64,000 nt of DNA from a virus (IMGVR_UViG_3300045988_167582); one strand, 5' to 3'. Positions 14,942 to 39,249 are shown, numbered from the stretch's first letter. Numbers and translations are program-made. The notes: generated by a model from the letters alone, not told the origin.

Positions 14942-15016
14942 TGAGGTGTAGCCAAGCGGTAAGGCACAGGACTTTGACTCCTGCATTCGTCAGTTCAAAT
15001 CTGACCATCTCAGCCA
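14942..15016 (+). tRNA. tRNA-Gln (anticodon UUG) with genomically encoded CCA
   Basis: Hand-folded cloverleaf. Acceptor TGAGGTG/CATCTCA, anticodon arm CAGGA-CTTTGAC-TCCTG (TTG at 14974-14976), T arm GTCAG-TTCAAAT-CTGAC, discriminator G, then CCA. Confidence 0.85.
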
Positions 15017-27346: not shown

Positions 27347-28174
27347 ATGGACGAATATCTTGGCTTTAAGGAAGTTGTTTTATCCGATAATGAAATTAAC
27401 TCAATTTTCCAAAATAATATGGCAAACACCTTTGGTTGCCTTCCTAATCAGTACCTGATTGCAAAGGATGGTTGCGACAATAACCTCGAGTTAATGAGGT
27501 GTACGGGAGATAAGATGGTCAAAGTACCGTACAAAACTATTAACAGTAGGTTTTTAGGAAAGGTTAAACCACGAAATACTCAGCAGCAGCTTGCAATCGA
27601 TATGCTTTACAACAACGATATTACCGTCAAGGTAATTGCAGGCAAGTTCGGAACGGGCAAAGACTTCTTGATGTGCTCTGCGGCAATCGACCTTCTTGAA
27701 CACAACAAATTTGAAAAAATCGTTTATATTCGGAACAATATTGAGGTTAAAAACTCAAAACCCATCGGATATCTCCCCGGTTCATACAATGAAAAGCTCC
27801 TTCCGTTCGCAATGCCGCTGGCAGACCATTTAGGAGGAACTGACGGTTTGAGTTTAATGGTCGGACACGGTCAGATTGAGATTGTCCACCTCGGCTTTAT
27901 CAGAGGTCGTGACATTAAGAACTCAATTATCCTTTGCTCCGAGGCAGAAAACATGACAAAGGAACATATCCAGCTACTTCTCGGGCGAGTCGGAGAAGGG
28001 TCTGCGCTCTGGATTAACGGTGATTTTAAGCAGTGTGATGCAGAGGTTTTCAGACAGAATAGTGGGCTTATGGCTGCTGTTGATAAGCTTAAGGGACATC
28101 CGAGATTTGGGTATGTGAAACTATTAAAGACAGAGAGGAGCGAGACGGCAGCCATGGCTGACCTGTTGGATTAA
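27347..28174 (+). CDS. phoH: PhoH-like ATPase
   Basis: GKFGTGKDF Walker A, GYLPGSYNEKLLPFAMPLADHL, and ENMTKEHIQLLLGRVGEGS..INGD. Confidence 0.85.
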   Translation: MDEYLGFKEVVLSDNEINSIFQNNMANTFGCLPNQYLIAKDGCDNNLELMRCTGDKMVKVPYKTINSRFLGKVKPRNTQQQLAIDMLYNNDITVKVIAGKFGTGKDFLMCSAAIDLLEHNKFEKIVYIRNNIEVKNSKPIGYLPGSYNEKLLPFAMPLADHLGGTDGLSLMVGHGQIEIVHLGFIRGRDIKNSIILCSEAENMTKEHIQLLLGRVGEGSALWINGDFKQCDAEVFRQNSGLMAAVDKLKGHPRFGYVKLLKTERSETAAMADLLD

Positions 28175-28177
28175 AAA

Positions 28178-28738
28178 ATGAACAAACTCACAGTTCTTGT
28201 GGATATGGACGACACGCTCGAAAATCTTTGTGAAACGTGGGTTGAATATCTGAACGAGAGGCACGGTACCAATGTACATATCAATGATGTGAAAGAATGG
28301 GATATGACAAAAGCATTCCCAACGCTTTCAAAATCCGAGCTTTTTGCACCATTGTACGAAGAAGAGTTATGGAAGAGGGTAAAACCTCTTCCGGATTCGG
28401 TCAAATATGTTAAAAGACTGCTTGATGACGGACACAAGGTTATCATTGTGACGGCATCGCACCAAGATACTGTTGCGTATAAGCTCAACGATGTTTTGTT
28501 CAGATATTTTCCGTTTCTCACCACAAACGACGTGGTTATCGCATATCAAAAACAACTTATCAGAGGAGACGTTCTAATTGATGACGCCCCTCACAATCTC
28601 ATCGGAGGGGAATACAAAGGAATTCTGATGAACGCTCCTCATAACAAACAGTTTGACGAAAAAGCTACTGGCTTTGTAAGGGTTGCTAATTGGGAAGAGG
28701 CTTACAACGCAGTACGCAATATTGCAGAAGAGAGGTGA
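28178..28738 (+). CDS. 5'(3')-deoxyribonucleotidase (HAD, NT5C-like)
   Basis: VLVDMDDTLE (DxDxT), VTAS, and LIDDAPHN. Confidence 0.7.
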   Translation: MNKLTVLVDMDDTLENLCETWVEYLNERHGTNVHINDVKEWDMTKAFPTLSKSELFAPLYEEELWKRVKPLPDSVKYVKRLLDDGHKVIIVTASHQDTVAYKLNDVLFRYFPFLTTNDVVIAYQKQLIRGDVLIDDAPHNLIGGEYKGILMNAPHNKQFDEKATGFVRVANWEEAYNAVRNIAEER

Positions 28739-28941
28739 ACGATATTTACATCTTATACTCAACAGGATGCCCCAAATGCGAAGTCTTAAAGAAAAAACTC
28801 GCCGAAAAAGGCGTCCAGTACACAGAAAATAACTCAGTGGACGAGATGTTAACGCTCGGCATTGAAGCAGTCCCGGTCTTAAAGGTGAACGACCGACTCC
28901 TTGATTTTAAGGGAGCGGTTGACTGGGTAAATAAACAGTAA
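28735..28941 (+). CDS. nrdH: glutaredoxin-like NrdH-type redoxin
   Basis: YSTGCPKCEVLKKKL CxxC motif and VPVLKVND. GTG start overlapping the upstream stop (GTGA). Confidence 0.7.
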   Translation: MNDIYILYSTGCPKCEVLKKKLAEKGVQYTENNSVDEMLTLGIEAVPVLKVNDRLLDFKGAVDWVNKQ

Positions 28942-28952
28942 GGAGATGGCAA

Positions 28953-30869
28953 ATGAACATTCCATTAAAGATGAATAGAGATTTTGAAAAGGTTATGCAG
29001 TCGATGCTTGAGAAATACGGGGAGGATTTCGAGTATCTTAACGGATTCCACGAAACACAGTTAAATTTCTCGGACTTTATCGACAGCTTTGTTGACAAAA
29101 AGGTTGCAGACGTAACGATTGACGCAAACGCCAATGCGTCAAACAAGGATATTCGCAGTCTTATCAATGAAAAAGGGAAATCTCTCGACAAGCTCTTCGC
29201 TTTCAATAAGATTTTTTACGAACTCAAGAAGAAATACAACCTCAAAACAGCAAAAGAGTGGCTCGAATGCGAATATAATGGTGCTTTTTATCTGCACGAC
29301 GCATCATCGGCAACATATTTACCGTATTGTTATGCATACGACCTCACCAGACTTGCAACAGAGGGCTTATTCTTCCTTAAAAACTATAATAATCAGCCCC
29401 CGAAACACCTTACAACATTTATTGACGACGTAATCGAGTACATTAGCTACATGAGTAACCGGAGTTCCGGCGCTGTGGGTATCCCCAATGTGCTTATTTG
29501 GACTTATTACTTCTGGAAACACGATTGTGAGACCGGTTTTTATATCAAGGACAAGGACTATTACATCAGACAGTCTTTCCAGAAGCTGATTTACCGTCTG
29601 AACCAACCGTTTATGCGCATCGACCAGACTGCATTCGTCAACGTATCGATTTTTGACCGTAACTATATCGAGTCTTTGTTCGGCGGTGTTCAATACCCCG
29701 ACGGAACCTATGTAATCGACTGCGTGGACGAGCTTATTGAACATCAGAAACTGTTTATGGAAGTGGTTTCGCAGATTCGCAGTGAAAATATGTTTACATT
29801 CCCTGTCCTGACATACTCGCTGCTTTATAAAGACGGCAAATTTGTTGACGAGGATTTTGCACGCTGGTGTTCAGACCACAACACAAAATGGAATGACAGC
29901 AATTTCTTCGTAAGCGGAGATGTTACGACTCTTAGTAACTGTTGCCGACTGCTTTCTGATACAACCAAACTCAGCGCTTTCATCAATTCAATCGGCGGCA
30001 CAGCACTCTCCATTGGTTCCGTTAAGGTCAACACGATTAACCTTATGAGAATTGCGCTTGAAACAGAGTGTGACGAGAAAAAGTACCTCGCATTGCTCAA
30101 AAAGCGAGCAACGCTGTGCTGCAAGACACTGGATATCGTAAGACATATTATGCGTCGCAATATTGAAAAGGGTCTTCTCCCGAACTATCAGGACGGTGCG
30201 GTTGAAATGGATAAACAGTATTGCACTATGGGTATTCTCGGTCTCTTCGAGGTCATCGAAGCATTCGGGTATACCAAAGTTGACGAACTGGGCTATACCT
30301 ACTACACGGATGAAGGAATTGAACTTGCCTGCAAAATCTTTGATGTGTTAAACGAGGTCAAGGACGGTTTTACAACGGAGTATTCGTTCAACATCGAGTC
30401 TGTTCCTGCAGAGCGTGCAGCGTGTATTCTCTGCCAGAAAGACAACGCACTGTTCGACCTAAATAATAAGTTCATTTACTCAAATCAGTGGATTCCGCTT
30501 TCAACAAAATGCACCATCAAAGAAAAACTGCGTCTCAGCGCCATTCTTGATGAAAAATGCAGCGGCGGCAGTATCGCACATATCAATCTCGAAGCCAATT
30601 TCCCGAACAATGATATGGCGTGGGAAATGCTCAATAAGATTGCTCAAGCTGGAGTAATTTACTTTGCGTTTAATACAAGAATCAACGAGTGTAAGAACCA
30701 CCACGGTTTTGTTGGAACGGATATCTGCCCGAATTGCGGTGAGCCCGTTTTTGATACATATGTAAGAATTGTAGGGTATTTAGTTCCAACTCGAAGTTTC
30801 TCTAATGATAGGTTTAGAGAGTTTACAACTCGACAGTGGTACGAACTTTCGGAGACTATGCGTGAGTAA
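28953..30869 (+). CDS. nrdD: anaerobic ribonucleoside-triphosphate reductase
   Basis: 638 aa. C-terminal Zn site CKNHHG...CPNCGEP and glycyl-radical motif YVRIVGYLVP. Confidence 0.9.
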   Translation: MNIPLKMNRDFEKVMQSMLEKYGEDFEYLNGFHETQLNFSDFIDSFVDKKVADVTIDANANASNKDIRSLINEKGKSLDKLFAFNKIFYELKKKYNLKTAKEWLECEYNGAFYLHDASSATYLPYCYAYDLTRLATEGLFFLKNYNNQPPKHLTTFIDDVIEYISYMSNRSSGAVGIPNVLIWTYYFWKHDCETGFYIKDKDYYIRQSFQKLIYRLNQPFMRIDQTAFVNVSIFDRNYIESLFGGVQYPDGTYVIDCVDELIEHQKLFMEVVSQIRSENMFTFPVLTYSLLYKDGKFVDEDFARWCSDHNTKWNDSNFFVSGDVTTLSNCCRLLSDTTKLSAFINSIGGTALSIGSVKVNTINLMRIALETECDEKKYLALLKKRATLCCKTLDIVRHIMRRNIEKGLLPNYQDGAVEMDKQYCTMGILGLFEVIEAFGYTKVDELGYTYYTDEGIELACKIFDVLNEVKDGFTTEYSFNIESVPAERAACILCQKDNALFDLNNKFIYSNQWIPLSTKCTIKEKLRLSAILDEKCSGGSIAHINLEANFPNNDMAWEMLNKIAQAGVIYFAFNTRINECKNHHGFVGTDICPNCGEPVFDTYVRIVGYLVPTRSFSNDRFREFTTRQWYELSETMRE

Positions 30870-31398
30870 ACTAATCGATTTGACTTCACAACGCTTCGGT
30901 AGACTGATGGTGCTTTTCTAAGCACCATCTACTGGAGGGCAAGCAGAACGGATTTGTATGTGCAACTAAGGAGATAATTTTAAAGACGAGAACTGTCGAT
31001 TTAACAGGACAATAGATGTGTTCTCTTCATATCTGACAACAGGAGATATAAAGTCCTGTGGATGTATTATGTCTTATAGAGAAACTTTAATTGAACGGTA
31101 TTTGATAAATCATAATATCCAATTTCAAAGACAGTTTACTTTTCAAGACCTCAGAGGAAAGAAATATCCATTAAGATTTGATTTTGCTGTGTTTGAAGAC
31201 GACGGAACCTTACAGTGTTTGATTGAGTATCAAGGCGAGCAGCATTATACTAATATATTCAAAATACCAGAAGATGATTATTTACAATCTATTGCAAGGG
31301 ATGAATTAAAACGAAAATACTGTAATGAGCATAAGATACCGTTATACGAGTTGAATAACGAAGAAACGATAGAAACGGAGCTGAAAAGGATTTTATGA
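30862..31398 (+). pseudogene. homing-endonuclease-like gene (N-terminal module as at 19873; PD-(D/E)XK/Vsr-like C-terminus) with two in-frame TAA stops
   Basis: A single frame reads VSKLIDLTSQRFGRLMVLF-TAA(30919)-...ERICMCN-TAA(30967)-G...GDIKSCGC...RFDFAVFEDDGTLQCLIEYQGEQH. The ORF is intact only from 31018. Confidence 0.5.
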
Positions 31399-31880
31399 AG
31401 ATAAAAACAATTGTGGACGAGGATTTCGTGAATTACAAGGTTCCATCCATGTATATTGGTGCGGCGTATTGCAACGGAAAATGTTGCCGAGAAGCCGGAA
31501 TTCCGTTATCTGTCTGCCAGAACGATGCGTGGCGCGGTAGCGCCACCATCGCAATGGATGACGATGATATTATCCAGAGATATCTATCAAACGATATTAC
31601 AAAGGCTCTTTGCTTCGCGGGTCTGGAACCGTTTGAGCAGTTTGACGAGCTGTTGCGCCTCGTGTCTAAGCTCCGCACAGAGTATCACTGTAATGATACA
31701 GTGGTCATTTACACGGGATACAATATGACTGAAATTGTGTCCGAGGTCGCTACGCTGAGAAAATTTGATAATATTGTTATTAAGTTCGGGCGATATGTCC
31801 CCAACCAGTCAAAACATTTTGATGAGGTTTTGGGTGTATATCTGGCTTCCGATAACCAGTATGCAGAAAGAATCAGTTAA
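31395..31880 (+). CDS. nrdG: anaerobic RNR activating protein (NrdG-like)
   Basis: Position after nrdD, small size, and CFAGLEPF...VVIYTGY resembling GGEP...TGY. The cysteine motif YCNGKCCREAGIPLSVC is non-canonical. Confidence 0.65.
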   Translation: MKIKTIVDEDFVNYKVPSMYIGAAYCNGKCCREAGIPLSVCQNDAWRGSATIAMDDDDIIQRYLSNDITKALCFAGLEPFEQFDELLRLVSKLRTEYHCNDTVVIYTGYNMTEIVSEVATLRKFDNIVIKFGRYVPNQSKHFDEVLGVYLASDNQYAERIS

Positions 31881-31891
31881 GGAGAATACAT

Positions 31892-32164
31892 ATGGGCAAC
31901 AAACTTACAATTTCATTTGGGCTCGTTGATGAGTTCGGAAACGAGTATTCGGCAACATCGAAAACAGAAACCTTTGAAGACCTTGGCGTTGGCAATATTG
32001 AGACAATCGGGGAGCAGCTCAACAACTTCCTCAGACAGTGCGGTTATGTCAGAAAGAACGATTATATCTTCATGGACGATGTAAACGATGATGAGTATGA
32101 AGCGATTGCCGATTTCCTTGTGGACTATCGCCGTGAGCGTGAGAAAGTGGTGGATAGAGAATGA
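31892..32164 (+). CDS. hypothetical acidic protein
   Basis: AAGGAGA SD. Confidence 0.5.
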   Translation: MGNKLTISFGLVDEFGNEYSATSKTETFEDLGVGNIETIGEQLNNFLRQCGYVRKNDYIFMDDVNDDEYEAIADFLVDYRREREKVVDRE

Positions 32165-32268
32165 TTAGTGTATGGAATCTACTTTGGATTGTCCCGCTTT
32201 CATGTTTATTCGGTTTTTGGTTAGCGGCACTGCTTATGGTATCAGAGAATGACGATATGGAGGAATGA
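32161..32268 (+). CDS. 35-aa hydrophobic peptide
   Basis: ATGA overlaps at both ends. MISVWNLLWIVPLSCLFGFWLAALLMV is a single TM segment. Confidence 0.3.
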   Translation: MISVWNLLWIVPLSCLFGFWLAALLMVSENDDMEE

Positions 32269-32456
32269 TAATGAATATTTCCCTTACAATTTCCCAGATT
32301 GAAAATCTTAAAGAGTTTATTGAATTTGAGTTCATCGGCTCCATCCGAGACGATGAGGATATCGATAATATCGACTACATTGTAGATATGATGGATACAT
32401 ACAAAAAACTGAAAGAGGCGCTGGCGAACAGTAATTCAGCAAGAATTAGTGCGTAG
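32265..32456 (+). CDS. hypothetical protein
   Basis: GGAGGA SD and ATGA coupling. Confidence 0.45.
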   Translation: MIMNISLTISQIENLKEFIEFEFIGSIRDDEDIDNIDYIVDMMDTYKKLKEALANSNSARISA

Positions 32457-32525
32457 CCAGTATACAGACATCGGAACATCCAGCGTCACTACCTCAGAGG
32501 AATACTATACTAACGGAGGCTTACA

Positions 32526-32723
32526 ATGACCATTAGACAAAATCCAGACAGGGATTACGCAAAAGAAGTACGTGATAAGCTGAAAAGTAATGGCGGCTAC
32601 TGTCCTTGCCGCCTTGAAAAAACAGCGGACACCAAATGTATGTGCAAAGAATTTCGAGAGCAGATTGAGCGAAACGAGCCCGGCTATTGCCATTGTGGGC
32701 TCTACTGCATTGAGAAGGATTAA
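32526..32723 (+). CDS. ferredoxin-thioredoxin reductase catalytic-subunit-like protein
   Basis: Three CxC pairs, CPC-x9-CMC-x16-CHC, in 65 aa, as in the FTR beta chain (CPC...CPC...CHC). GGAGG SD. Confidence 0.5.
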   Translation: MTIRQNPDRDYAKEVRDKLKSNGGYCPCRLEKTADTKCMCKEFREQIERNEPGYCHCGLYCIEKD

Positions 32724-32725
32724 GT

Positions 32726-33154
32726 ATGCGCAGGGTATTTATTATGCGTAAAGACCTGAATATGTCCGTCGGTAAGCTCTTAACTCAAACCTACCACTGC
32801 GCAGAAGCATATTGGACGCACGGGCTTAGAGCAAACGCAAAGCCGATAGACGACGCCAGAGGATATATTGCCAGCATCAAAATTCCCAAGGATGTGTATG
32901 AGCAGTATGTGTGCGGTATGCTCGTGAAGACCGTATGTGAGGCAAGAAATAAGAACCACCTACTTAAAGCCAAAACAATTGCAGAGAAAATAGGGCTTGT
33001 AGAGGGCGTAGATTTTGGGCTCATATACGATAAATGCTTAACGGAACTTGTTCCCGAGGAAGAGGACGGTACAACGCTGACGGGAATTTGGTTTGCACCG
33101 CTTGATGACGAGCGGGCTCACTCAATCAGCAAGAAATATCAATTATATAAATAA
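32726..33154 (+). CDS. pth2: peptidyl-tRNA hydrolase, PTH2 family
   Basis: VFIMRKDLNMSVGKLLTQTYHCA and KTVCEA...LIYDKCLTELVP...TLTGIWFAP parallel the archaeal/eukaryotic Pth2 pattern (VvR.DL.M.kGK.aAQ..Ha ... DaG.T.l...T.l.i.P). Confidence 0.65.
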   Translation: MRRVFIMRKDLNMSVGKLLTQTYHCAEAYWTHGLRANAKPIDDARGYIASIKIPKDVYEQYVCGMLVKTVCEARNKNHLLKAKTIAEKIGLVEGVDFGLIYDKCLTELVPEEEDGTTLTGIWFAPLDDERAHSISKKYQLYK

Positions 33155-33172
33155 GAAAGGGTTATACATAAT

Positions 33173-33667
33173 ATGACTATCAACTTTATGAAGGTAGATG
33201 ACAAAGCTATTACGCCTACACACGGAAGCGCCTATGCCGCAGGATTTGACTTATACGCCCGCACCAAAACGGGGGTACAGCGTATTCCTGCCGGTAAAAC
33301 AGAAAAAATCGGAACCGGAATTTGTGTTGAAATCCCTGATGGGTACTTCGGAGCAATTTTTGCAAGAAGCGGACTGGCTACCAACCGAGGCTTACGCCCT
33401 GCAAATTGCGTCGGGGTCATTGATTCTGACTACAGGGGAGAGGTCATCGTGGCTCTCCATAATGATACGGATTCCTGCGAGTCTATTCACGAGGGAGACC
33501 GTATCGCACAGCTTGTTATTCTCCCGTATCTGCCTGTAATTCTCAGAGAGGTTGAGAAGCTGACGGATACCGATAGAGGTGCCGGTGGCTTCGGCAGTAC
33601 TGGTGTATCTAATAAGTCTTCTCAGGAGTGCGAACAGCTTTCTTTATTTGATATGACAAACGAGTGA
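33173..33667 (+). CDS. dut: dUTPase
   Basis: AAGFDLYA, ARSGLA, GVIDSDYRGEV, RIAQLVI and RGAGGFGSTG (motifs 1-5). Confidence 0.9.
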   Translation: MTINFMKVDDKAITPTHGSAYAAGFDLYARTKTGVQRIPAGKTEKIGTGICVEIPDGYFGAIFARSGLATNRGLRPANCVGVIDSDYRGEVIVALHNDTDSCESIHEGDRIAQLVILPYLPVILREVEKLTDTDRGAGGFGSTGVSNKSSQECEQLSLFDMTNE

Positions 33668-33717: not shown

Positions 33718-33731
33718 AAGGAGGAGTGTCG

Positions 33732-33932
33732 ATGAAACCTACAGTTCCAATTTGGCAGAAGTTCACCATTACTGTTGAGGAAGCAGCGGTGTATTTTCGT
33801 ATCGGAGAAAATAAACTGCGCCAACTTATGAGCGAGAATAGAAATGCAGACTTTATTCTGTGGAATGGCAATAGACCGCAAATAAAGCGCCAAAAGTTCG
33901 AGGACTTCATCAACAGTTTACATAACATTTAA
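33732..33932 (+). CDS. xis: Tn916-type excisionase
   Basis: IPIWQKFTITVEEAAVYFRIGENKLRQL...WNGNRPQIKRQKFEDFI closely parallels Tn916 Xis. Confidence 0.75.
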   Translation: MKPTVPIWQKFTITVEEAAVYFRIGENKLRQLMSENRNADFILWNGNRPQIKRQKFEDFINSLHNI

Positions 33933-33951
33933 TCAAAATTGTTGAGCCCAC

Positions 33952-33980
33952 TTGAAAGAGGGTCGAAAATATGTTAAAAT
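33952..33980 (+). promoter_or_regulatory. candidate int promoter embedded in a palindrome
   Basis: TTGAAA, 17 nt spacer, TGtTAAAAT. The -10 lies inside the perfect 16-bp palindrome GTTAAAATATTTTAAC (33973-33988). Confidence 0.45.
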
Positions 33981-34043
33981 ATTTTAACAAAATATACTTG
34001 TTTATACATATCGTAGTGGGCTCTTATCGGAAAGGAGTTTCTT

Positions 34044-35312
34044 ATGTCCGAAAAGAGACGCGACAACAAGGGTAGGTTGCTACAGTCCTGCGAAAGACAA
34101 AGAAGCGACGGTATGTATGAGTTTCGGTACTTAGACAAGCAAGGTAAGAAGCATAGTGTGTATAGTTGGAAGCTGGTTTCCACAGACAAGGTGCCACTGG
34201 GCAAGAGATGTAAAGAGCCTCTGCGTGATACGGAACGCAGGATTATTCGAGACCTTGAGGACGGCATAGATACCATCGAAGCATACAAGACTACGCTCAA
34301 CCATTTCTTTAATGAGTATATCGAAACAAAATATGAACTGAAACAATCTACCCGAACAAACTATAAGTATATGTACCGCAAGTATGTGCGAGATGACTTT
34401 GGCTGTAAGAAGATTGCGAGCATTAAATATAGCGATGTCAAGAAGTTCTATATCTCTTTGATTAGGGATAGAGGTTTCAAGCCCAACAGTTTAGAAACAA
34501 TCCACACAATACTTCATCCTGTTTTCACAGCCGCCATGAGGGACGGTAAAATCAGAGTTAATCCAAGCGACGGGGTGATGGCTGAAATTAAGAAAAGCCA
34601 CGACTGGTCAAAACCAAAACGACACGCACTAACAATTCCCGAACAAGAGGCGTTCGTGAAGTTTTGTAGTAAGAGCAAGCAATACCAGCATTGGATGCCA
34701 TTGTTTACTGTGTTCCTCGGGACTGGATGCAGAGTTGGCGAGGTTATAGGACTTCGATGGGAAGACTGTGATTTTGAACACAACCTTATTTCCATCAATC
34801 ACAACCTTATATACAGGCAACAGGATAGCGGAGTGTGTGAATTCCACATTACAACCCCGAAGACCGAATCTGGTAAGCGTGTGATACCGATGTTGCAAAA
34901 AGTCAAGGACGCACTGCTGCTTGAGTACAAAATCCAATCACGGGGTGGCTTCAATGAAACGGTAATCGATGGTTATAGTGGATTCATATTTAAGAATCGA
35001 TTTGGCTCCGTGGTGTCAGCCCACTGCATAAACAGAGCGATTGAGAGAATATGTAGAGACTATAATAAGGAAGAAAAAGAAAAGGCAAAAGCCGAACAAC
35101 GAGAGCCTGTTTTGATACCTCATTTTACAGTACACCAATTACGACATACATTCTGTACCCGGTTCTGTGAAAACGAGACGAATATCAAAGTCATTCAAGA
35201 AATAATGGGTCACGCTGATATCTCAACGACGATGGATATCTATAATGAAGCAACGATGGCAAAGAAAGTTGAAAGCTTTGCAAACCTTGAAGGCAAGATA
35301 AAAATATGCTGA
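34044..35312 (+). CDS. int: tyrosine integrase, Tn916 Int family
   Basis: N-terminal MSEKRRDNKGRLL...YSWKL arm-binding domain. C-terminal HQLRHTFCTRF...GHADISTTMDIY. Confidence 0.9.
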   Translation: MSEKRRDNKGRLLQSCERQRSDGMYEFRYLDKQGKKHSVYSWKLVSTDKVPLGKRCKEPLRDTERRIIRDLEDGIDTIEAYKTTLNHFFNEYIETKYELKQSTRTNYKYMYRKYVRDDFGCKKIASIKYSDVKKFYISLIRDRGFKPNSLETIHTILHPVFTAAMRDGKIRVNPSDGVMAEIKKSHDWSKPKRHALTIPEQEAFVKFCSKSKQYQHWMPLFTVFLGTGCRVGEVIGLRWEDCDFEHNLISINHNLIYRQQDSGVCEFHITTPKTESGKRVIPMLQKVKDALLLEYKIQSRGGFNETVIDGYSGFIFKNRFGSVVSAHCINRAIERICRDYNKEEKEKAKAEQREPVLIPHFTVHQLRHTFCTRFCENETNIKVIQEIMGHADISTTMDIYNEATMAKKVESFANLEGKIKIC

Positions 35313-35720
35313 TGATTTTACCACTTTTTCTACCACTTTTCAAAGCAAAGTAGTGGTAAAATATAAGAATATATATGAATCGAGGATATCGTGAATCGTT
35401 GTGAGGCAAAGGATTTGAGAAGTTATGAGAGGTTATAATAAAGTCGGATTTCTAATCCCGACAATGAAACCTTTAGATTAAAAAAATGTTGTGAGACAAC
35501 GACTTGCACCGTTATCAGTAGTTGTTTTACCACTTTTTTACCACTTTTGAAATTTTAGATAGCTCACTATGATATGAATGAAAGGCACTGTTGTTATTTA
35601 CAATGGTGTTTTTCTTTTTTTAGAAATCTTTTCAGCAATAACAGCCATTTAGTGCTGAATGATAATGTTTATAATTATTAACACAAATGAGATTTATGTT
35701 TATAATTATTGACATTATGA
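35313..35720. other. candidate attP region (repeat-dense, non-coding)
   Basis: Immediately 3' of int. Contains five TACCAC(T)n motifs, two GTTGTGAGnCAA, a tandem TGAGAnGTTA and two 15-mers ATGTTTATAATTATT. No credible ORF. Confidence 0.5.
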
Positions 35721-35765
35721 CCAAGAAAAGAAAAGCGGGCAGAGTGTATAAAACTCATGCCCGCT
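35720..35765 (-). terminator. rho-independent terminator closing the minus-strand accessory operon
   Basis: On the minus strand: AGCGGGCA, 16-nt loop, TGCCCGCT, followed by TTTTCTTTTCTT. Confidence 0.6.
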
Positions 35766-35958
35766 TAAACGCGTTTAACGCCCCTATATTGGAAAAGAAA
35801 TGGAGGAGTGTAGTTTGGCACTCCTCCGAAATTTGCTTTATAGAGAGTTTTCTGCTGGTTGTCAGCAATCTCTTCCTGCTGCCAACAACTATGGAAGCTT
35901 ATCCTGCCCATATTCAGCCCGACTTTTTACAGTACTTTCACACCAGCGTGTGTAAATA

Positions 35959-36477
35959 TTAGACCGACACACTCTCCTGTAACAGCTTGGAATAGATGAC
36001 TTGCGTTTTTGGAGTACACGCACCAATAACTTTATCCAAGTCGCCCAATGTTTTAATAACAACCATCCGGTCAATATTAGTAAGATACATCAACACATTT
36101 TTGTGTTGCATAATCAGATTGATAGTGTTATTCAGCGTGCCGCGACTCTCGCCATCCCAAATCATAAAGCCGTAATCAGCCTCGTTTGTCATGGCAATGT
36201 CTTTCTGCTTATAGAAATCAAACCCGTGAATGTGTGAGGGAACGGCAACGTTGCGAACGTTCCAACCACCAATGTTATTCCGAGCTTTACCGTTGCTTGC
36301 AAAAATGGTGACATTGCTATACCCCAAGTTGGAATAAAATCTCTGAACAGAAGCATCGACACCGTAACAATCTCCGACAAGGACATCGTAACCCTTTTGA
36401 TAGATTGTCATCATCCTCTGCTGGACAGAAACATCTAATTTTTGCACCGAACGTGCCCCTGCGATAAAAATTTTCAC
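35959..36477 (-). CDS. SLOG-superfamily (DprA/LOG/YpsA-like Rossmann) protein
   Basis: KIFIAGARS...YDVLVGDCYGVDASVQ...ADYGFMIWDGESRGTLN is the pattern of SMF/DprA-LOG folds. GTG start 9 nt after GAGGAG. Confidence 0.55.
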   Translation of the reverse strand: MKIFIAGARSVQKLDVSVQQRMMTIYQKGYDVLVGDCYGVDASVQRFYSNLGYSNVTIFASNGKARNNIGGWNVRNVAVPSHIHGFDFYKQKDIAMTNEADYGFMIWDGESRGTLNNTINLIMQHKNVLMYLTNIDRMVVIKTLGDLDKVIGACTPKTQVIYSKLLQESVSV

Positions 36478-36497
36478 GGTATCACACTCCTCTCAAA

Positions 36498-37067
36498 TTA
36501 TTTTGTTTTGGCAATTGCCAGATAGTATACTTTCGCAACAAGTGGGTCTTCTTTCAATACGGCAACGCATTCGTTTGCAGTGCTTCCTGTGGAATACAAG
36601 TCGTCTATAAGAAGAATATTACACTTGCGTGTTGCGGGCTTTAATTTAATAATAGAGCCGTGCATATCTCTATTGTTCTTATCTATACTCTTGGCGGGTA
36701 TGTTGCTTATCTTTTTCAAAACATCCTCTGCACAAGGAATATGCATTTTAGCTGATATAGTTTCTGCAATCATATAGACTGGCTGAGAAATTCGTTCAAT
36801 GGTAGGCGGTGCGGGAAGAATAATATTGACCTTTTTATCTGAAAGCCAACTATTAAGAAACTCTACACACATTTCGGCGATGGATTCACTTGTATCTAAG
36901 TGACCGTTATATTTCAATGAATGAAGCAGTTTCCCGACGGCAGTGTATGTCGTGTTGAATTGGGGACGACCAAACACATCATTACCAATGTATTCGCTGT
37001 TTTCTACATATTTGTCTATAATAAATCCTTCGTCCCACAAGCCATTAACTTTTATATGCACACTCAT
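36498..37067 (-). CDS. ComF-family type I phosphoribosyltransferase-like protein (no N-terminal zinc finger)
   Basis: PRPP loop NILLIDDLYSTGSTANE. ComF-like LLHSLKYNGH...NIILPAPPT...QPVYMIAE. The ORF-track TTG 37130 is actually the -35 of its promoter. Confidence 0.7.
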   Translation of the reverse strand: MSVHIKVNGLWDEGFIIDKYVENSEYIGNDVFGRPQFNTTYTAVGKLLHSLKYNGHLDTSESIAEMCVEFLNSWLSDKKVNIILPAPPTIERISQPVYMIAETISAKMHIPCAEDVLKKISNIPAKSIDKNNRDMHGSIIKLKPATRKCNILLIDDLYSTGSTANECVAVLKEDPLVAKVYYLAIAKTK

Positions 37068-37101
37068 TGTGGCGTTCACCAACCTATAATTTCTCATCAT
37101 T

Positions 37102-37130
37102 GTTTTAGCATATATCGAGCCGAATGTCAA
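37102..37130 (-). promoter_or_regulatory. promoter of the PRTase-SLOG cassette
   Basis: On the minus strand: TTGACA, 17 nt spacer, TGcTAAAAC. Confidence 0.45.
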
Positions 37131-37209
37131 TATTTCGGTTCAAGTTACCAAAATATTGTGCCGATGTGCTGGTGCAATCTGTATTATCGGGTTCAGACCC
37201 ACTTTTTAC

Positions 37210-37380
37210 TTAGGAACCAGCAGAATCATCAACCCAAGTTAGTGTACCACTGACATTTTTGAGCACCTGAGTCTTCCCGGCGTCATAGCCTTTAACTCTG
37301 GCTAACACTTCGGTAAACATCTTTTTAATGTCATCGGCATGAGTCTTATCCATAGAATTAAAACCACTGTTGTTAATCAT
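37210..37380 (-). CDS. 56-aa hypothetical protein
   Basis: AGAGGT SD 7 nt before ATG 37380. The ORF-track extension to 37503 overlaps the upstream gene. Confidence 0.4.
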   Translation of the reverse strand: MINNSGFNSMDKTHADDIKKMFTEVLARVKGYDAGKTQVLKNVSGTLTWVDDSAGS

Positions 37381-37438
37381 AATAATACCTCTAAAATGTT
37401 CATCAAGATATTTTACACCCACAAAATATCCTCTGAAA

Positions 37439-37837
37439 TTAGTGTTCTTCCTCGTCGGGATGCGAGGACTCATAATCAATTGTCCAGTGCGACATTTCAT
37501 CAAGCATCAACATAGCGAAACTATTCCCGTGCAGTCTGTTAATATACAAATCCTCAACGCACATCAGAGTCTTTTTTTTCGTATAAAGGCGAAATTTTTG
37601 TATCGTTGTACTTGTAAAAATGTTCTTAATAACAGTGCGGCATTGTGTTCGCGTAAATTCCATCATAATGTCGTTTGTTGCGGCAACGCTTTCCTTAAAT
37701 TCCTTATCTTCGTCGATATGCCGCTCCAAAAGCTCTTTGATTTCAGCAATGCTGTCAGAGACTTCGTCAGACTTGCCATATTTCTTAAAGAAGCTGGCAA
37801 TAGCCTGACGAGCGGTCTTTGAAGCAAGTGTAATCAC
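37439..37837 (-). CDS. hypothetical protein; the in-frame upstream segment encodes a TM helix but lacks a canonical start
   Basis: GTG 37837 has no SD. The frame is open to 37900 and encodes NIAAILGAVISAASVITLA. Confidence 0.4.
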   Translation of the reverse strand: MITLASKTARQAIASFFKKYGKSDEVSDSIAEIKELLERHIDEDKEFKESVAATNDIMMEFTRTQCRTVIKNIFTSTTIQKFRLYTKKKTLMCVEDLYINRLHGNSFAMLMLDEMSHWTIDYESSHPDEEEH

Positions 37838-38052: not shown

Positions 38053-38982
38053 TTACACTCTCTTAAGATATTTGCCGGCACACATCCAGTTGCCGCTCTC
38101 GAGTTGACACCAGTTACCCTGACGAGCCACGACATAGAATATCTCGCCTCTTGAGTACTGCCCGACTCGGCGATACCTTACAGACGGACCCTTGCGAACA
38201 TATAACATTTGGCAAGTCATAGTGTAGGCTGTGCCTCTGTGTGACGGAGCAGGTGACGCAGACACATTGTTCACATATGTACCTTTGGTGTTCTGAACGC
38301 CGCAAAACTCGGCAGGATTTATGCGCGTAACCGTGCCTTTACCAGTGCGAACCTCGTAATGAGTATGTGCACCAAAACTGTTGCCGGTGTTACCCATTAT
38401 GCCGACAACATCACCGGCAGAAACCCTCTGACCCTTATGCATAGAGATAGACGCAAGGTGCGCGTAAAAGTGCCGCTTGCCGGTTGAATCGGTTATGACA
38501 ACAAGGTTGCCATAGCTCTGTGTGCCTGTTTTGGTTTTGCCGTCCCAGACGGAAACCATTGATACTGTGCCGCCCTCTACCGCGTGGACGGTTCTATCAT
38601 CATCTCCGACTATGTCTATACCGCCGTGTCCTTGTTTAGTATTGATATTATATGTGTACGGCTGCGTTACGCGGTTACGACCGGAAAAAAGCATTCCTGC
38701 CGCATATCCGCCTGTTTCTTCATTCTGCCTTACATCGTCTTCCGTACCGTATGTGAGAGCTCTTGCGCTATCGTTCAAGCCCTCAGTTGTCGGGTCAACG
38801 AGTATTCCGAGTGCAGACAGAAAATTCACGATAAGCATTAAGACCCCCGTCAGCGTGTCCTCACTCACTTTTGGCACGATTTCAAACATTCCGAGGATTT
38901 GATAAATTGTCGCCAAAATAAGTGTAATCAGCGACACCACGAATGTCTTGTTCTTAAACCTCTGCTTGATGTTGATTTTCAT
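38053..38982 (-). CDS. holin (phiLC3/SPP1 type) fused to an M23 peptidase and an SH3 domain
   Basis: aa 1-80 MKINIKQRFKNKTFVVSLITLIL...GILVDPTTEGLNDS is holin-like. GHGGIDIV...HLASI...GNTGNSFGAHTHYEV carries the M23 HxxxD/HxH motifs. The C-terminus YVRKGPS...GNWCQL is SH3-like. Confidence 0.8.
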   Translation of the reverse strand: MKINIKQRFKNKTFVVSLITLILATIYQILGMFEIVPKVSEDTLTGVLMLIVNFLSALGILVDPTTEGLNDSARALTYGTEDDVRQNEETGGYAAGMLFSGRNRVTQPYTYNINTKQGHGGIDIVGDDDRTVHAVEGGTVSMVSVWDGKTKTGTQSYGNLVVITDSTGKRHFYAHLASISMHKGQRVSAGDVVGIMGNTGNSFGAHTHYEVRTGKGTVTRINPAEFCGVQNTKGTYVNNVSASPAPSHRGTAYTMTCQMLYVRKGPSVRYRRVGQYSRGEIFYVVARQGNWCQLESGNWMCAGKYLKRV

Positions 38983-38988
38983 AATTTT

Positions 38989-39249
38989 TTACACTCCTTT
39001 GTGATAATTTTCAAGGTCGTCAATTCGGTGATTGATAACCTTAATTTTTTGCTCCATTACCGGTATTCGCTCGGCAAAATTGTTATGCATACGCACCTCT
39101 CTCGTAAGTTCTTCAATCTTTGTATCGATAACAGCTTGATTGCGCTCAAGCTGCGTCGTCATATTACGGGAAGTGCTTATCGATGTTATAATAACGCCGA
39201 GAAGAGCAAGACCGCCCGAGATTATAGCAACAGCTACAGCATCACTCAT
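38989..39249 (-). CDS. membrane protein (N-terminal TM plus coiled coil), holin/XhlA-like accessory lysis protein
   Basis: AVAVAIISGGLALLGVIITSI TM segment followed by a heptad-rich tail. Immediately upstream of the lysin. Confidence 0.45.
   Translation of the reverse strand: MSDAVAVAIISGGLALLGVIITSISTSRNMTTQLERNQAVIDTKIEELTREVRMHNNFAERIPVMEQKIKVINHRIDDLENYHKGV

Follow-up and report, generated by a model that had tools for sequence, protein, structure and literature searches.

The DNA analysed here is a 64,000-nt viral sequence (IMGVR_UViG_3300045988_167582), called the window throughout; all coordinates are positions in it, and homologous loci and homologous proteins carry L and P numbers, respectively. 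The window is the genome of a temperate phage of gut Clostridia in the attP configuration. Our subject is a minus-strand cassette encoding a phosphoribosyltransferase (PRTase) and a protein of the SLOG superfamily, which an earlier note on this DNA had picked out as an autonomous unit with a possible role in immunity. Calling of open reading frames (ORFs) in the window gave two co-oriented genes with 20 nt between them, for a 189-aa PRTase followed by a 172-aa SLOG protein, and the second gene has a Shine-Dalgarno sequence of its own, GAGAGGAG, as the note had read (Table 1).

The PRTase ORF is listed by the ORF finder as 36498–37130 with a TTG start, while the true start is the ATG at 37067 (MSVHIKVNG...). 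Most of the 52 homologue clusters (at 90% identity) that make up the PRTase family are 189 aa long and open at the equivalent M-x-x-x-I-x-V-x-G-L-W, and gene callers on other contigs independently give 189 aa. The TTG at 37130 coincides with the first base of a TTGACA hexamer, so that the listed start is really the -35 element of a promoter, in agreement with the note. A generic promoter scan of the window did not call this promoter, owing to the final C of its -10. Homologous cassettes in unrelated contexts have sigma-70 promoters at the same place, 21–34 nt 5' of the ATG, with 10–12 of 12 consensus bases (all 12 in L143, L017 and L034), and several of these have the terminator hairpin of the upstream gene ahead of them. 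The conserved position therefore supports both the promoter and the idea of an autonomous cassette.

Downstream of the SLOG gene, the terminator scan called one intrinsic terminator. A strong terminator had been proposed further on, at 35720–35765; the hairpin and T-run do exist there, but the 16-nt loop is unusually long, which is why the scan did not call it, and the hairpin at 35827–35802 is the more canonical terminator. In total, three hairpins lie within 190 nt 3' of the SLOG stop codon (~35870–35900, 35827–35802 and 35765–35720), and a further one, at 35462–35443, sits on the att crossover. Tandem terminators, integrase arm sites or an sRNA are candidate roles for these hairpins. Rfam at gathering thresholds found a single tRNA in the window, so neither the cassette nor its 190-nt 3' untranslated region has a known RNA element.

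Table 1. Coordinates of the cassette and of neighbouring features in the window
Feature	Position	Strand	Basis and remarks
Gene 1, stand-alone type I PRTase, predicted toxin, 189 aa	36498..37067	-	ORF; loop for phosphoribosyl pyrophosphate (PRPP) NILLIDDLYSTGST
Gene 2, single-domain SLOG protein (DprA/ShosA-like Rossmannoid), predicted antitoxin/neutraliser, 172 aa	35959..36477	-	ORF, GTG start
Shine-Dalgarno sequence of gene 2, within the 20-nt gap	36487..36494	-	Sequence reading; 9 nt 5' of GTG
Cassette promoter: -35 TTGACA (37130–37125), 17-nt spacer, extended -10 TGcTAAAAC (hexamer 37107–37102), 34-nt leader to ATG	37102..37130	-	Sequence reading and positional conservation
Intrinsic terminator: GGAGGAGTG, 8-nt loop, CACTCCTCC (35827–35802), then T-run ATTTCTTTTC	35792..35827	-	Terminator scan; ~130 nt past the SLOG stop
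Second hairpin and T-run: GCGGGCA, 16-nt loop, TGCCCGC, TTTTCTTTTCTT	35720..35765	-	Sequence reading
attP crossover region (approximate)	35440..35480	.	Identity with integrated copies stops at ~35456
Tyrosine integrase (Integrase_DNA, Phage_int_SAM_3 and Phage_integrase domains)	34044..35312	+	ORF; Pfam annotation of the identical gene in L059–L061
Small ORF of ~56–97 aa, between lysin and cassette	37210–37503		No meaningful Pfam match
Small ORF of 132 aa, between lysin and cassette	37439–37837		No meaningful Pfam match
309-aa lysin (Phage_holin_1, Peptidase_M23, faint SH3_3)	38053..38982	-	ORF; Pfam annotation in L057–L062
86-aa small ORF, candidate holin by our reading	38989..39249	-	ORF; no Pfam match

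A stand-alone PRTase related to PsyrT and ShosT

The first gene product had been described as a ComF-like PRTase without the zinc finger of ComFC, and the motifs quoted for it are present and conserved. In the family alignment, the invariant residues are D155 and D156 in LLxDD, K52-Y53-G55 in KYNG, and P88, R92, Q95 and P96 in PPT..R..QP. The first 66 residues contain no cysteine, so the protein has no ComFC-type zinc finger. The AlphaFold2 model (pLDDT, the predicted local distance difference test score, 91) consists of a family-specific 41-residue N-terminal β-hairpin module and a PRTase core. When this model was searched against the Protein Data Bank (PDB) with Foldseek, the top match was ComF of H. 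pylori (7p0h), and generic PRTases and ShosT (8zvb at rank 9, and also 8zvd) were among the matches. At the level of sequence, the comF model TIGR00201 scored 33.2 bits against a cut-off of 233.55 and GntX 16 bits against 304, both failing, and generic PRTase models of Pfam gave sub-threshold matches only. A profile of the PRTase family searched against PDB sequences found generic PRTases only (PurR, OPRT, PurF), reaching neither ShosT nor ComF.

The closest sequence matches are instead to PRTases of defence systems. In PADLOC, the PRTase of the window matches PsyrT (E 2.6e-12, at positions 538–684 of the 689 of the model), ShosT (2.2e-6) and the retron III-A PRTase (4e-4). Across the family, the PsyrT and ShosT models match all 37 aligned members (best E 3.4e-16 and 8.7e-11, respectively), and the PRTase_III-A models match 35 of the 37. 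The helicase part of the PsyrT model, positions 1–537, has no match in the PRTase, and the N-terminal pyrophosphatase/hydrolase domain found in ShosT of E. coli APEC O1 is not present in the 189 residues. As the ShosT model of PADLOC has only 237 positions, this domain may not be universal in ShosT.

A single-domain SLOG partner

The 172-aa protein is predicted by AlphaFold2 with high confidence (pLDDT 94.9) as one domain. On this model it has the Rossmannoid fold of the SLOG superfamily, marked by a Gly-rich/GxD motif towards the N-terminus and a loop of the GxSxGT type towards the C-terminus, and neither the SAM domain nor the C-terminal domain of DprA is found in it. Foldseek against the PDB placed ShosA of E. 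coli APEC O1 first (8zva, E 6.7e-5, TM-score 0.60) and H. pylori DprA second (5mll and 4ljk are listed), followed by LOG structures (2a33 at rank 4, with 5wq3 and 1t35 also listed) and YpsA (2nx2, rank 14); the top 15 also include a molybdenum-cofactor-binding protein and the SLOG domain of TRPM, while the SLOG domain of ThsA (7uxs) stands at rank 28. In BFVD, the matches are DprA-like, DUF2493 and YspA SLOG proteins. The description of the partner as a SLOG/DprA-type Rossmann protein is thus borne out by a model that matches ShosA, DprA and LOG.

Sequence searches reach much less far. Direct scans of the window protein gave no match in Pfam (E ≤ 1), PADLOC or NCBIfam and one chance-level match in PHROG, to a tail fibre (E 0.047). 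Searches of PDB sequences with phmmer and with a profile returned chance-level matches only and did not reach ShosA. The ShosA model of PADLOC is marginally reached (7.7e-4) by two of 38 family members, and the PsyrA model matches neither the window protein nor any of the 38 at E ≤ 1. The ThsA model of PADLOC has no match in the protein, which is a single domain with no SIR2 or transmembrane effector. Among 76 diverse members, seven have weak matches to Pfam DprA and three to the YAcAr model. With hhalign, the first 45 SLOG columns fall on the DprA signature, IAGARS...VGDCYGVD lying over VGSR...SGYAKGVD, at E 6e-4 and a probability of 28%. The motifs of the window protein are IAGARS, VGDCYGVDASVQ, ASNGKARNNIGxW and WDGESRGTLNN; G35, D36, G39, D41, Q45, D93, S111 and G113 are invariant in the 76 divergent members, and R66, N67 and N68 nearly so. 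The protein is basic (pI, the isoelectric point, 9.0; family median 9.15), as DprA-type partners are.

At 90% identity the SLOG family falls into 472 clusters, for which no Pfam domain is recorded, and at 50% identity (E ≤ 1e-3) into 2218. Members are also fused to the RNA 2'-phosphotransferase Tpt1/KptA, to NADAR, DUF488-N3a and YhfG (P0194, P0250, P0260, P0262, P0287, P0299, P0321 and others), and to C-terminal "addiction module antidote" helix-turn-helix (HTH) domains (dnstrm_HI1420, HTH_37). This suggests that the SLOG domain is portable and serves alongside several partners related to nucleotides or ADP-ribose. A divergent SLOG-only subgroup with a GDAYG[AV]D motif (41–48% identity) occurs without a PRTase in metagenome-assembled genomes (MAGs) of Christensenellales (L045, L047, L049, L051–L053); its neighbours are small acidic proteins, by appearance of the ArdA anti-restriction type, which suggests a leading or early region of a mobile element. 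In L004–L006, a SLOG protein 58% identical to that of the window is preceded by an unrelated basic protein of 184–186 aa in place of the PRTase, and stands among two genes with SocA_Panacea antitoxin domains and an RnlB-antitoxin-like gene, 3' of prophage tail genes. These loci may be a moron island rich in toxin-antitoxin genes, with a different SLOG partner.

Conservation of the pair across genomes

Loci were seeded independently from either gene and de-duplicated to 127 distinct loci. Seeding with the SLOG protein in species-representative genomes found a PRTase gene directly upstream in ~36 of 50 cases; the hosts were mostly Clostridia MAGs, together with Virgibacillus and Pseudogracilibacillus. 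Conversely, seeding with the PRTase in metagenomes found a SLOG gene directly downstream in 62 of the 73 loci with enough sequence. The intergenic gaps are mostly -4 to +37 nt, and many are 4-nt overlaps. An intact PRTase–SLOG pair is present at 79 of the 127 distinct loci, confirming that the genes are neighbours in other genomes and prophages, and such recurrence among independently seeded loci excludes chance. Elsewhere, a fragmented PRTase stands with an intact SLOG gene at 10 distinct loci, an intact PRTase with a fragmented SLOG gene at three, a PRTase without the small single-domain SLOG protein (mini-SLOG) at eight, and a SLOG gene without a PRTase at 14. Of the three loci where the PRTase is intact and the SLOG gene broken, two are on very small contigs, of 1.1 and 2.0 kb, one of them assembled at 1.4x coverage. 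The asymmetry of decay (10 vs. 3) is the pattern expected of a toxin-antitoxin pair and gives indirect support to that assignment.

The pair is the sole conserved unit across its contexts. In a related prophage it stands between tape-measure and distal-tail genes (L145:8001–9105), in another phage tail module it follows a ToxN gene and the gene for a 1551-aa protein (L147:5387–6486), and in a region resembling a defence island its neighbours are AbiH and a SMEK_N protein of 1585 aa (L143:8001–9133). Such surroundings point to roles in conflict. The view of the cassette as autonomous, with its own promoter and terminators, is upheld. In one protein of 404 aa, P0177, the two are joined as a natural single-chain fusion, with the PRTase at residues 2–201 and the SLOG domain at 210–382.

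The most informative loci are four of the eight that have a PRTase without the mini-SLOG (L133/L134 and L139/L140). There, a member of the same small PRTase family (A2 profile, E 1e-37) is followed by canonical DprA-type proteins, with matches to PsyrA at 1.6e-57, ShosA at 2.9e-43 and Pfam DprA at 3e-48. Since one PRTase family pairs with either, the mini-SLOG and the canonical DprA-type antitoxin are interchangeable partners. The pairs of L133 and L139 are evolutionary intermediates between the cassette of the window and classical ShosTA/PsyrTA. In these pairs (L133:3977–5525 and L139:2006–3309), the PRTase is ~32% identical, the partner has 238–335 aa, and an HTH gene sometimes stands ahead.

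Relationship to characterised systems

A PRTase paired with a DprA-like SLOG protein is what defines ShosTA and PsyrTA/RqlHI, toxin-antitoxin pairs with crystal structures and anti-phage activity (PMC11961720, PMC12961424, PMC4670107). ShosT binds PRPP and perturbs purine metabolism, which leads to DNA damage, and its DD loop is required for toxicity (PMC11961720). ShosA binds to single-stranded DNA (ssDNA) as well as RecA and neutralises ShosT without binding it, and the triggers proposed for the system are T7 Gp0.7 or cues related to phage ssDNA (PMC11961720, PMC12961424). RqlH's PRTase domain is genotoxic, requires D663, and is held in check by the DprA-like RqlI (PMC4670107). A DprA+PRTase pair from the P2 prophage hotspot protects against T7 and lambda (PMC9122126). 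Because ShosTA, PsyrTA/RqlHI and the P2 pair had already been described, the claim that the pairing is not a characterised system fails: the cassette belongs to the ShosTA/PsyrTA class as a compact variant and is no system of an undescribed kind. The more general idea of an immunity module is sound. What is new here is a toxin consisting of the PRTase only, a SLOG partner missed by the ShosA, PsyrA and DprA models, and the occurrence in Firmicutes (Clostridia, Bacilli) and their prophages.

Like ShosTA, the cassette is a two-gene operon of a DD-loop PRTase, predicted to bind PRPP, and a basic partner of SLOG/DprA fold, and a prophage-borne example of that arrangement is known (PMC9122126). Unlike it, the PRTase has 189 aa and a 41-residue β-hairpin N-terminus, whereas E. 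coli ShosT has 424 aa and an N-terminal pyrophosphatase-like domain; the partner is a single 172-aa domain, whereas in ShosA the SAM and DprA Rossmann domains span residues 1–313 and are followed by a disordered C-terminal loop; and the hosts are Clostridia and Bacilli rather than Proteobacteria. With PsyrTA/RqlHI, the cassette shares its best sequence match, the PRTase domain at the C-terminus of PsyrT, and a PRTase family that adjoins strong PsyrA matches in L133 and L139. However, PsyrT has a RecQ-like helicase fused to its PRTase, which the cassette lacks, and the partner in the window is not PsyrA by sequence.

Other systems resemble the cassette only in part. Its PRTase belongs to the same clade of defence-associated PRTases as that of type III-A retrons, but no reverse transcriptase or non-coding RNA lies beside it (the neighbouring ORFs are the 56–132-aa proteins, the lysin and the integrase, and Rfam found no such RNA), and an association with a retron was rejected. 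With ComFC and DprA the likeness is one of fold, H. pylori ComF being the top match of the PRTase and H. pylori DprA the second match of the partner. The comF score far below its cut-off, the lack of a four-cysteine zinc finger and the absence of a Pfam DprA match, a SAM domain and a C-terminal domain led us to reject true orthology, and the genes are not ordinary full-length comFC and dprA. To our knowledge, ComFC and DprA have not been described as an adjacent autonomous gene pair. A YpsA-branch SLOG–PRTase gene pair was noted computationally by Burroughs, Aravind et al., as cited in Brzozowski et al. 2019 (PMC6459960). As described there, it would share with the cassette the conserved coupling of a small SLOG protein to a PRTase in a predicted nucleotide-centred conflict system, whereas the SLOG protein of the window has no match to Pfam DUF1273/YpsA and YpsA is only at rank 14 of its fold matches. 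In Thoeris, the SLOG domain of ThsA is fused to a SIR2 or transmembrane effector and accompanied by the TIR-domain protein ThsB, unlike the single-domain SLOG protein here. Movement of the pair between the moron sites of prophages and defence islands makes a housekeeping salvage enzyme unlikely.

A probable toxin-antitoxin module and its alternatives

On balance, we think that the cassette is probably a lysogen-expressed toxin-antitoxin/abortive-infection module in the ShosTA/PsyrTA class, which the phage carries as a moron at its attP-proximal end. Homologies, folds, the catalytic motif, operon structure, promoter, synteny, the fusion, the interchange of partners, the asymmetry of decay and the location are the observations behind this reading; from these we infer toxicity, neutralisation, a trigger and an anti-phage effect. 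By analogy with ShosT and with the PRTase domain of RqlH/PsyrT, the PRTase would bind PRPP through its DD loop; this loop is invariant, and the equivalent residues are needed for toxicity in ShosT and in RqlH (D663). The acceptor to which the PRTase transfers ribose-5-phosphate may be a base, or a target that contains one, and the transfer would upset nucleotide pools or DNA and so damage replication. The basic SLOG protein would neutralise this toxicity, not necessarily by binding the toxin (type IV-like), and might do so either in the way reported for ShosA, by repair linked to ssDNA and RecA, or by action on the product of the PRTase. Both proteins would be made in the lysogen from the cassette promoter. 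On infection by a second phage, the balance could shift to the toxin, either because host shut-off depletes a labile partner or because phage ssDNA or recombination intermediates titrate it; the excess of toxin would then abort the infection. The pair would also stabilise the prophage.

Several points weigh against this reading. The isolated PRTase domain of RqlH is insufficient for toxicity (PMC4670107) and ShosT has its additional pyrophosphatase domain, so a bare 189-aa PRTase may behave differently. The SLOG protein has no counterpart of the SAM domain of ShosA, and its homology to ShosA rests mainly on fold, because sequence models and profile searches fail and hhalign gives only the 28% noted above. 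The SLOG family far exceeds the PRTase family in size (2218 clusters at 50% identity vs. 52 at 90%), and its fusions to Tpt1/KptA, NADAR and DUF488 point to nucleotide or ADP-ribose chemistry, not to ssDNA handling. The single-chain fusion indicates that both activities can share one polypeptide. Finally, at four distinct loci the PRTase has no downstream SLOG or DprA gene (L105, L112–L117 with L138, and L116 in housekeeping-like contexts; L111 followed by other genes), and such lone PRTases count against a toxin because an unneutralised toxin should not persist.

The most interesting alternative, which we regard as unlikely, is that the two proteins are an enzyme and its antidote. Here, the PRTase would make a toxic or signalling base-ribose-5'-phosphate, free or on nucleic acid, and a LOG-like N-glycosidase activity of the SLOG protein would cleave the same bond in a futile cycle; neutralisation would be chemical reversal, as in DarT/DarG, and not RecA/ssDNA repair, while defence would still follow from a disturbed balance. 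LOG-clade enzymes do hydrolyse the N-glycosidic bonds of nucleoside 5'-monophosphates, a phosphoribohydrolase chemistry opposite to that of PRTases (PMC9503650), LOG structures stand high in the list of SLOG folds (2a33 at rank 4; 5wq3, 1t35), and the family is fused to domains that handle ribose or ADP-ribose (Tpt1/KptA, NADAR, DUF488-N3a and a PRTase). Across the 76 members, the polar residues D36, D41, Q45 and D93 never vary and R66, N67 and N68 hardly do, no SAM domain is present, and the model proposed for RqlHI also had RqlI resolving a PRTase-modified nucleotide (PMC4670107). Yet the position of the catalytic Glu of LOG is occupied by a nearly invariant Asn (PGGxGTxxE vs. WDGxSxGTLNN, in a manual register), ShosA and DprA, which head the list of fold matches, are not enzymes, the protein resembles DNA binders in being basic, and even ShosT has no known substrate. 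We are just as doubtful of the broader idea that the SLOG domain is a portable enzymatic immunity domain rather than an ssDNA/RecA adaptor in the style of DprA, being an N-glycosidase or nucleotide binder that undoes or sequesters ribose-phosphate or ADP-ribose adducts made by varied partner toxins, among them the small PRTase of the window and, elsewhere, Tpt1/KptA, NADAR-linked and other domains. If it held, the cassette would be a DarTG-like write/erase pair for phosphoribosylation and a minimal two-domain system, even a single-chain one, for finding the physiological substrate of defence PRTases.

The toxin-antitoxin-type architecture, the asymmetry of decay and the position of the pair at the ends of mobile elements would equally suit a pure addiction module that maintains the prophage or mobile element and has no anti-phage role. 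We consider this improbable: all characterised relatives (ShosTA, PsyrTA and the P2 DprA+PRTase pair) defend against phages, the pair adjoins AbiH and ToxN, and post-segregational killing is of little use to an integrated prophage. For the readings as signalling, counter-defence or competence mimicry there is little specific support. A nucleotide-signalling system, in which the PRTase makes a second messenger that the SLOG protein senses as ThsA senses isomers of cyclic ADP-ribose (cADPR), is highly improbable. SLOG is the sensor in Thoeris, its ThsA structure is in the fold list, and PRTases produce N-glycosidic nucleotides, but neither protein nor any conserved neighbour has an effector domain, ThsA falls far below ShosA and DprA in the fold search, and the PRTase groups with toxin and effector PRTases, not with signal synthases. 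Least probable of all is interference with the host, whether as counter-defence, with the SLOG protein degrading or sequestering immune nucleotides such as cADPR, or through competence, with the pair mimicking or hijacking ssDNA uptake and RecA loading. Viruses often encode small stand-alone SLOG proteins, for which a role against cADPR signalling has been proposed (PMC9503650), BFVD contains matches, and ComF and DprA are respectively the first and second fold matches of the two proteins. Against this, many pairs lie in chromosomal, non-phage or defence-island contexts, the SLOG protein has no match in 50,697 GenBank phage records or, with the patterns used, in IMG/VR, and lysogen-expressed morons typically lie where this cassette does, behind the lysis genes and beside attP. 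The competence variant, which the earlier note had raised, also meets the comF score of 33 against 233 bits, the missing zinc finger, and the absent Pfam DprA match, SAM domain and C-terminal domain, and found no specific support.

The cassette bears on two questions about its class. One is the acceptor substrate of defence PRTases (ShosT, PsyrT/RqlH, retron III-A, Ophion OpnC); the other is how the DprA-like partner neutralises them, which is debated between decay triggered by shut-off and sensing of RecA/ssDNA. The cassette is the smallest natural form of the pair in the present analysis, in which a single SLOG domain accompanies a PRTase core and helicase, pyrophosphatase and SAM domains are all missing, and with more than 70 diverse orthologous pairs and a single-chain fusion it offers a convenient minimal model for biochemistry, covariation and co-folding. 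It also extends the ShosTA/PsyrTA defence class to prophages of uncultured gut Clostridia. Tools of the PADLOC type would probably not call this system, because the PADLOC v2 models miss the partner in the window and are marginal in 2 of 38 family members; a dedicated mini-SLOG profile would improve the defence annotation of gut metagenomes.

The host phage and its integration site

The genome is divided into two arms. The plus-strand arm (1–35312) carries early and replication genes and closes with NrdD/NrdG-like genes, PTH2, a dUTPase, a Tn916-type Xis and the tyrosine integrase, and the minus-strand arm (35959–63937) carries the structural and lysis genes. The integrase is convergent with the cassette, and attP lies in between. 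The excisionase is of the Tn916 type (PF09035) and the integrase has a Tn916-like Integrase_DNA N-terminal domain (window 33726–35312).

Contigs encoding a SLOG protein 99% identical to that of the window are either arranged like it (L059–L062) or integrated (L057, L058). In the two integrated copies, the cassette abuts host genes, for a class II aminoacyl-tRNA synthetase, GreA and a FolC-like ligase. Aligned with L057 by blastn (99.4% identity over 1745 nt), the window matches from position 37200 to ~35456, and the match ends at L057 position 9022, inside the 3' end of the host synthetase gene. As identity to the integrated copy stops at ~35456, the attP crossover lies near this position. The two genes are thus the last before the crossover, as the earlier note had placed them, between the lysis genes and attP, and in the lysogen no gene pair lies further out at this end of the prophage. 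The synthetase gene, which is LysS-like and stands beside greA, shares its 3' end with the attachment site.

No annotated close relative of the phage came out of the phage collection, in which megablast with 12 kb of the window found nothing. In tblastn against the 50,697 GenBank phage records, the SLOG protein had no match, and the PRTase had five matches only, at ~25% identity, in unannotated faecal phage contigs. A scan of IMG/VR with SLOG peptide patterns gave no confirmed relative for the patterns used.

Between the lysin gene and the cassette, the two small ORFs (37210–37837) differ in length or presence among the near-identical copies L057–L062, and the stretch is therefore a variable moron region. 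In the lysin itself, a Phage_holin_1 N-terminal membrane domain is joined to Peptidase_M23, resembling a holin-endolysin fusion or a signal-anchor lysin. The early arm is rich in genes of nucleotide metabolism (27347–33667), including PhoH, an NT5C 5'-nucleotidase, a thioredoxin-like protein, NrdD with an activase-like Fer4_12 protein, and the dUTPase, which could matter if the PRTase perturbs nucleotide pools. The same arm encodes the PTH2 peptidyl-tRNA hydrolase and has a tRNA-Gln(UUG) gene at 14942–15016.

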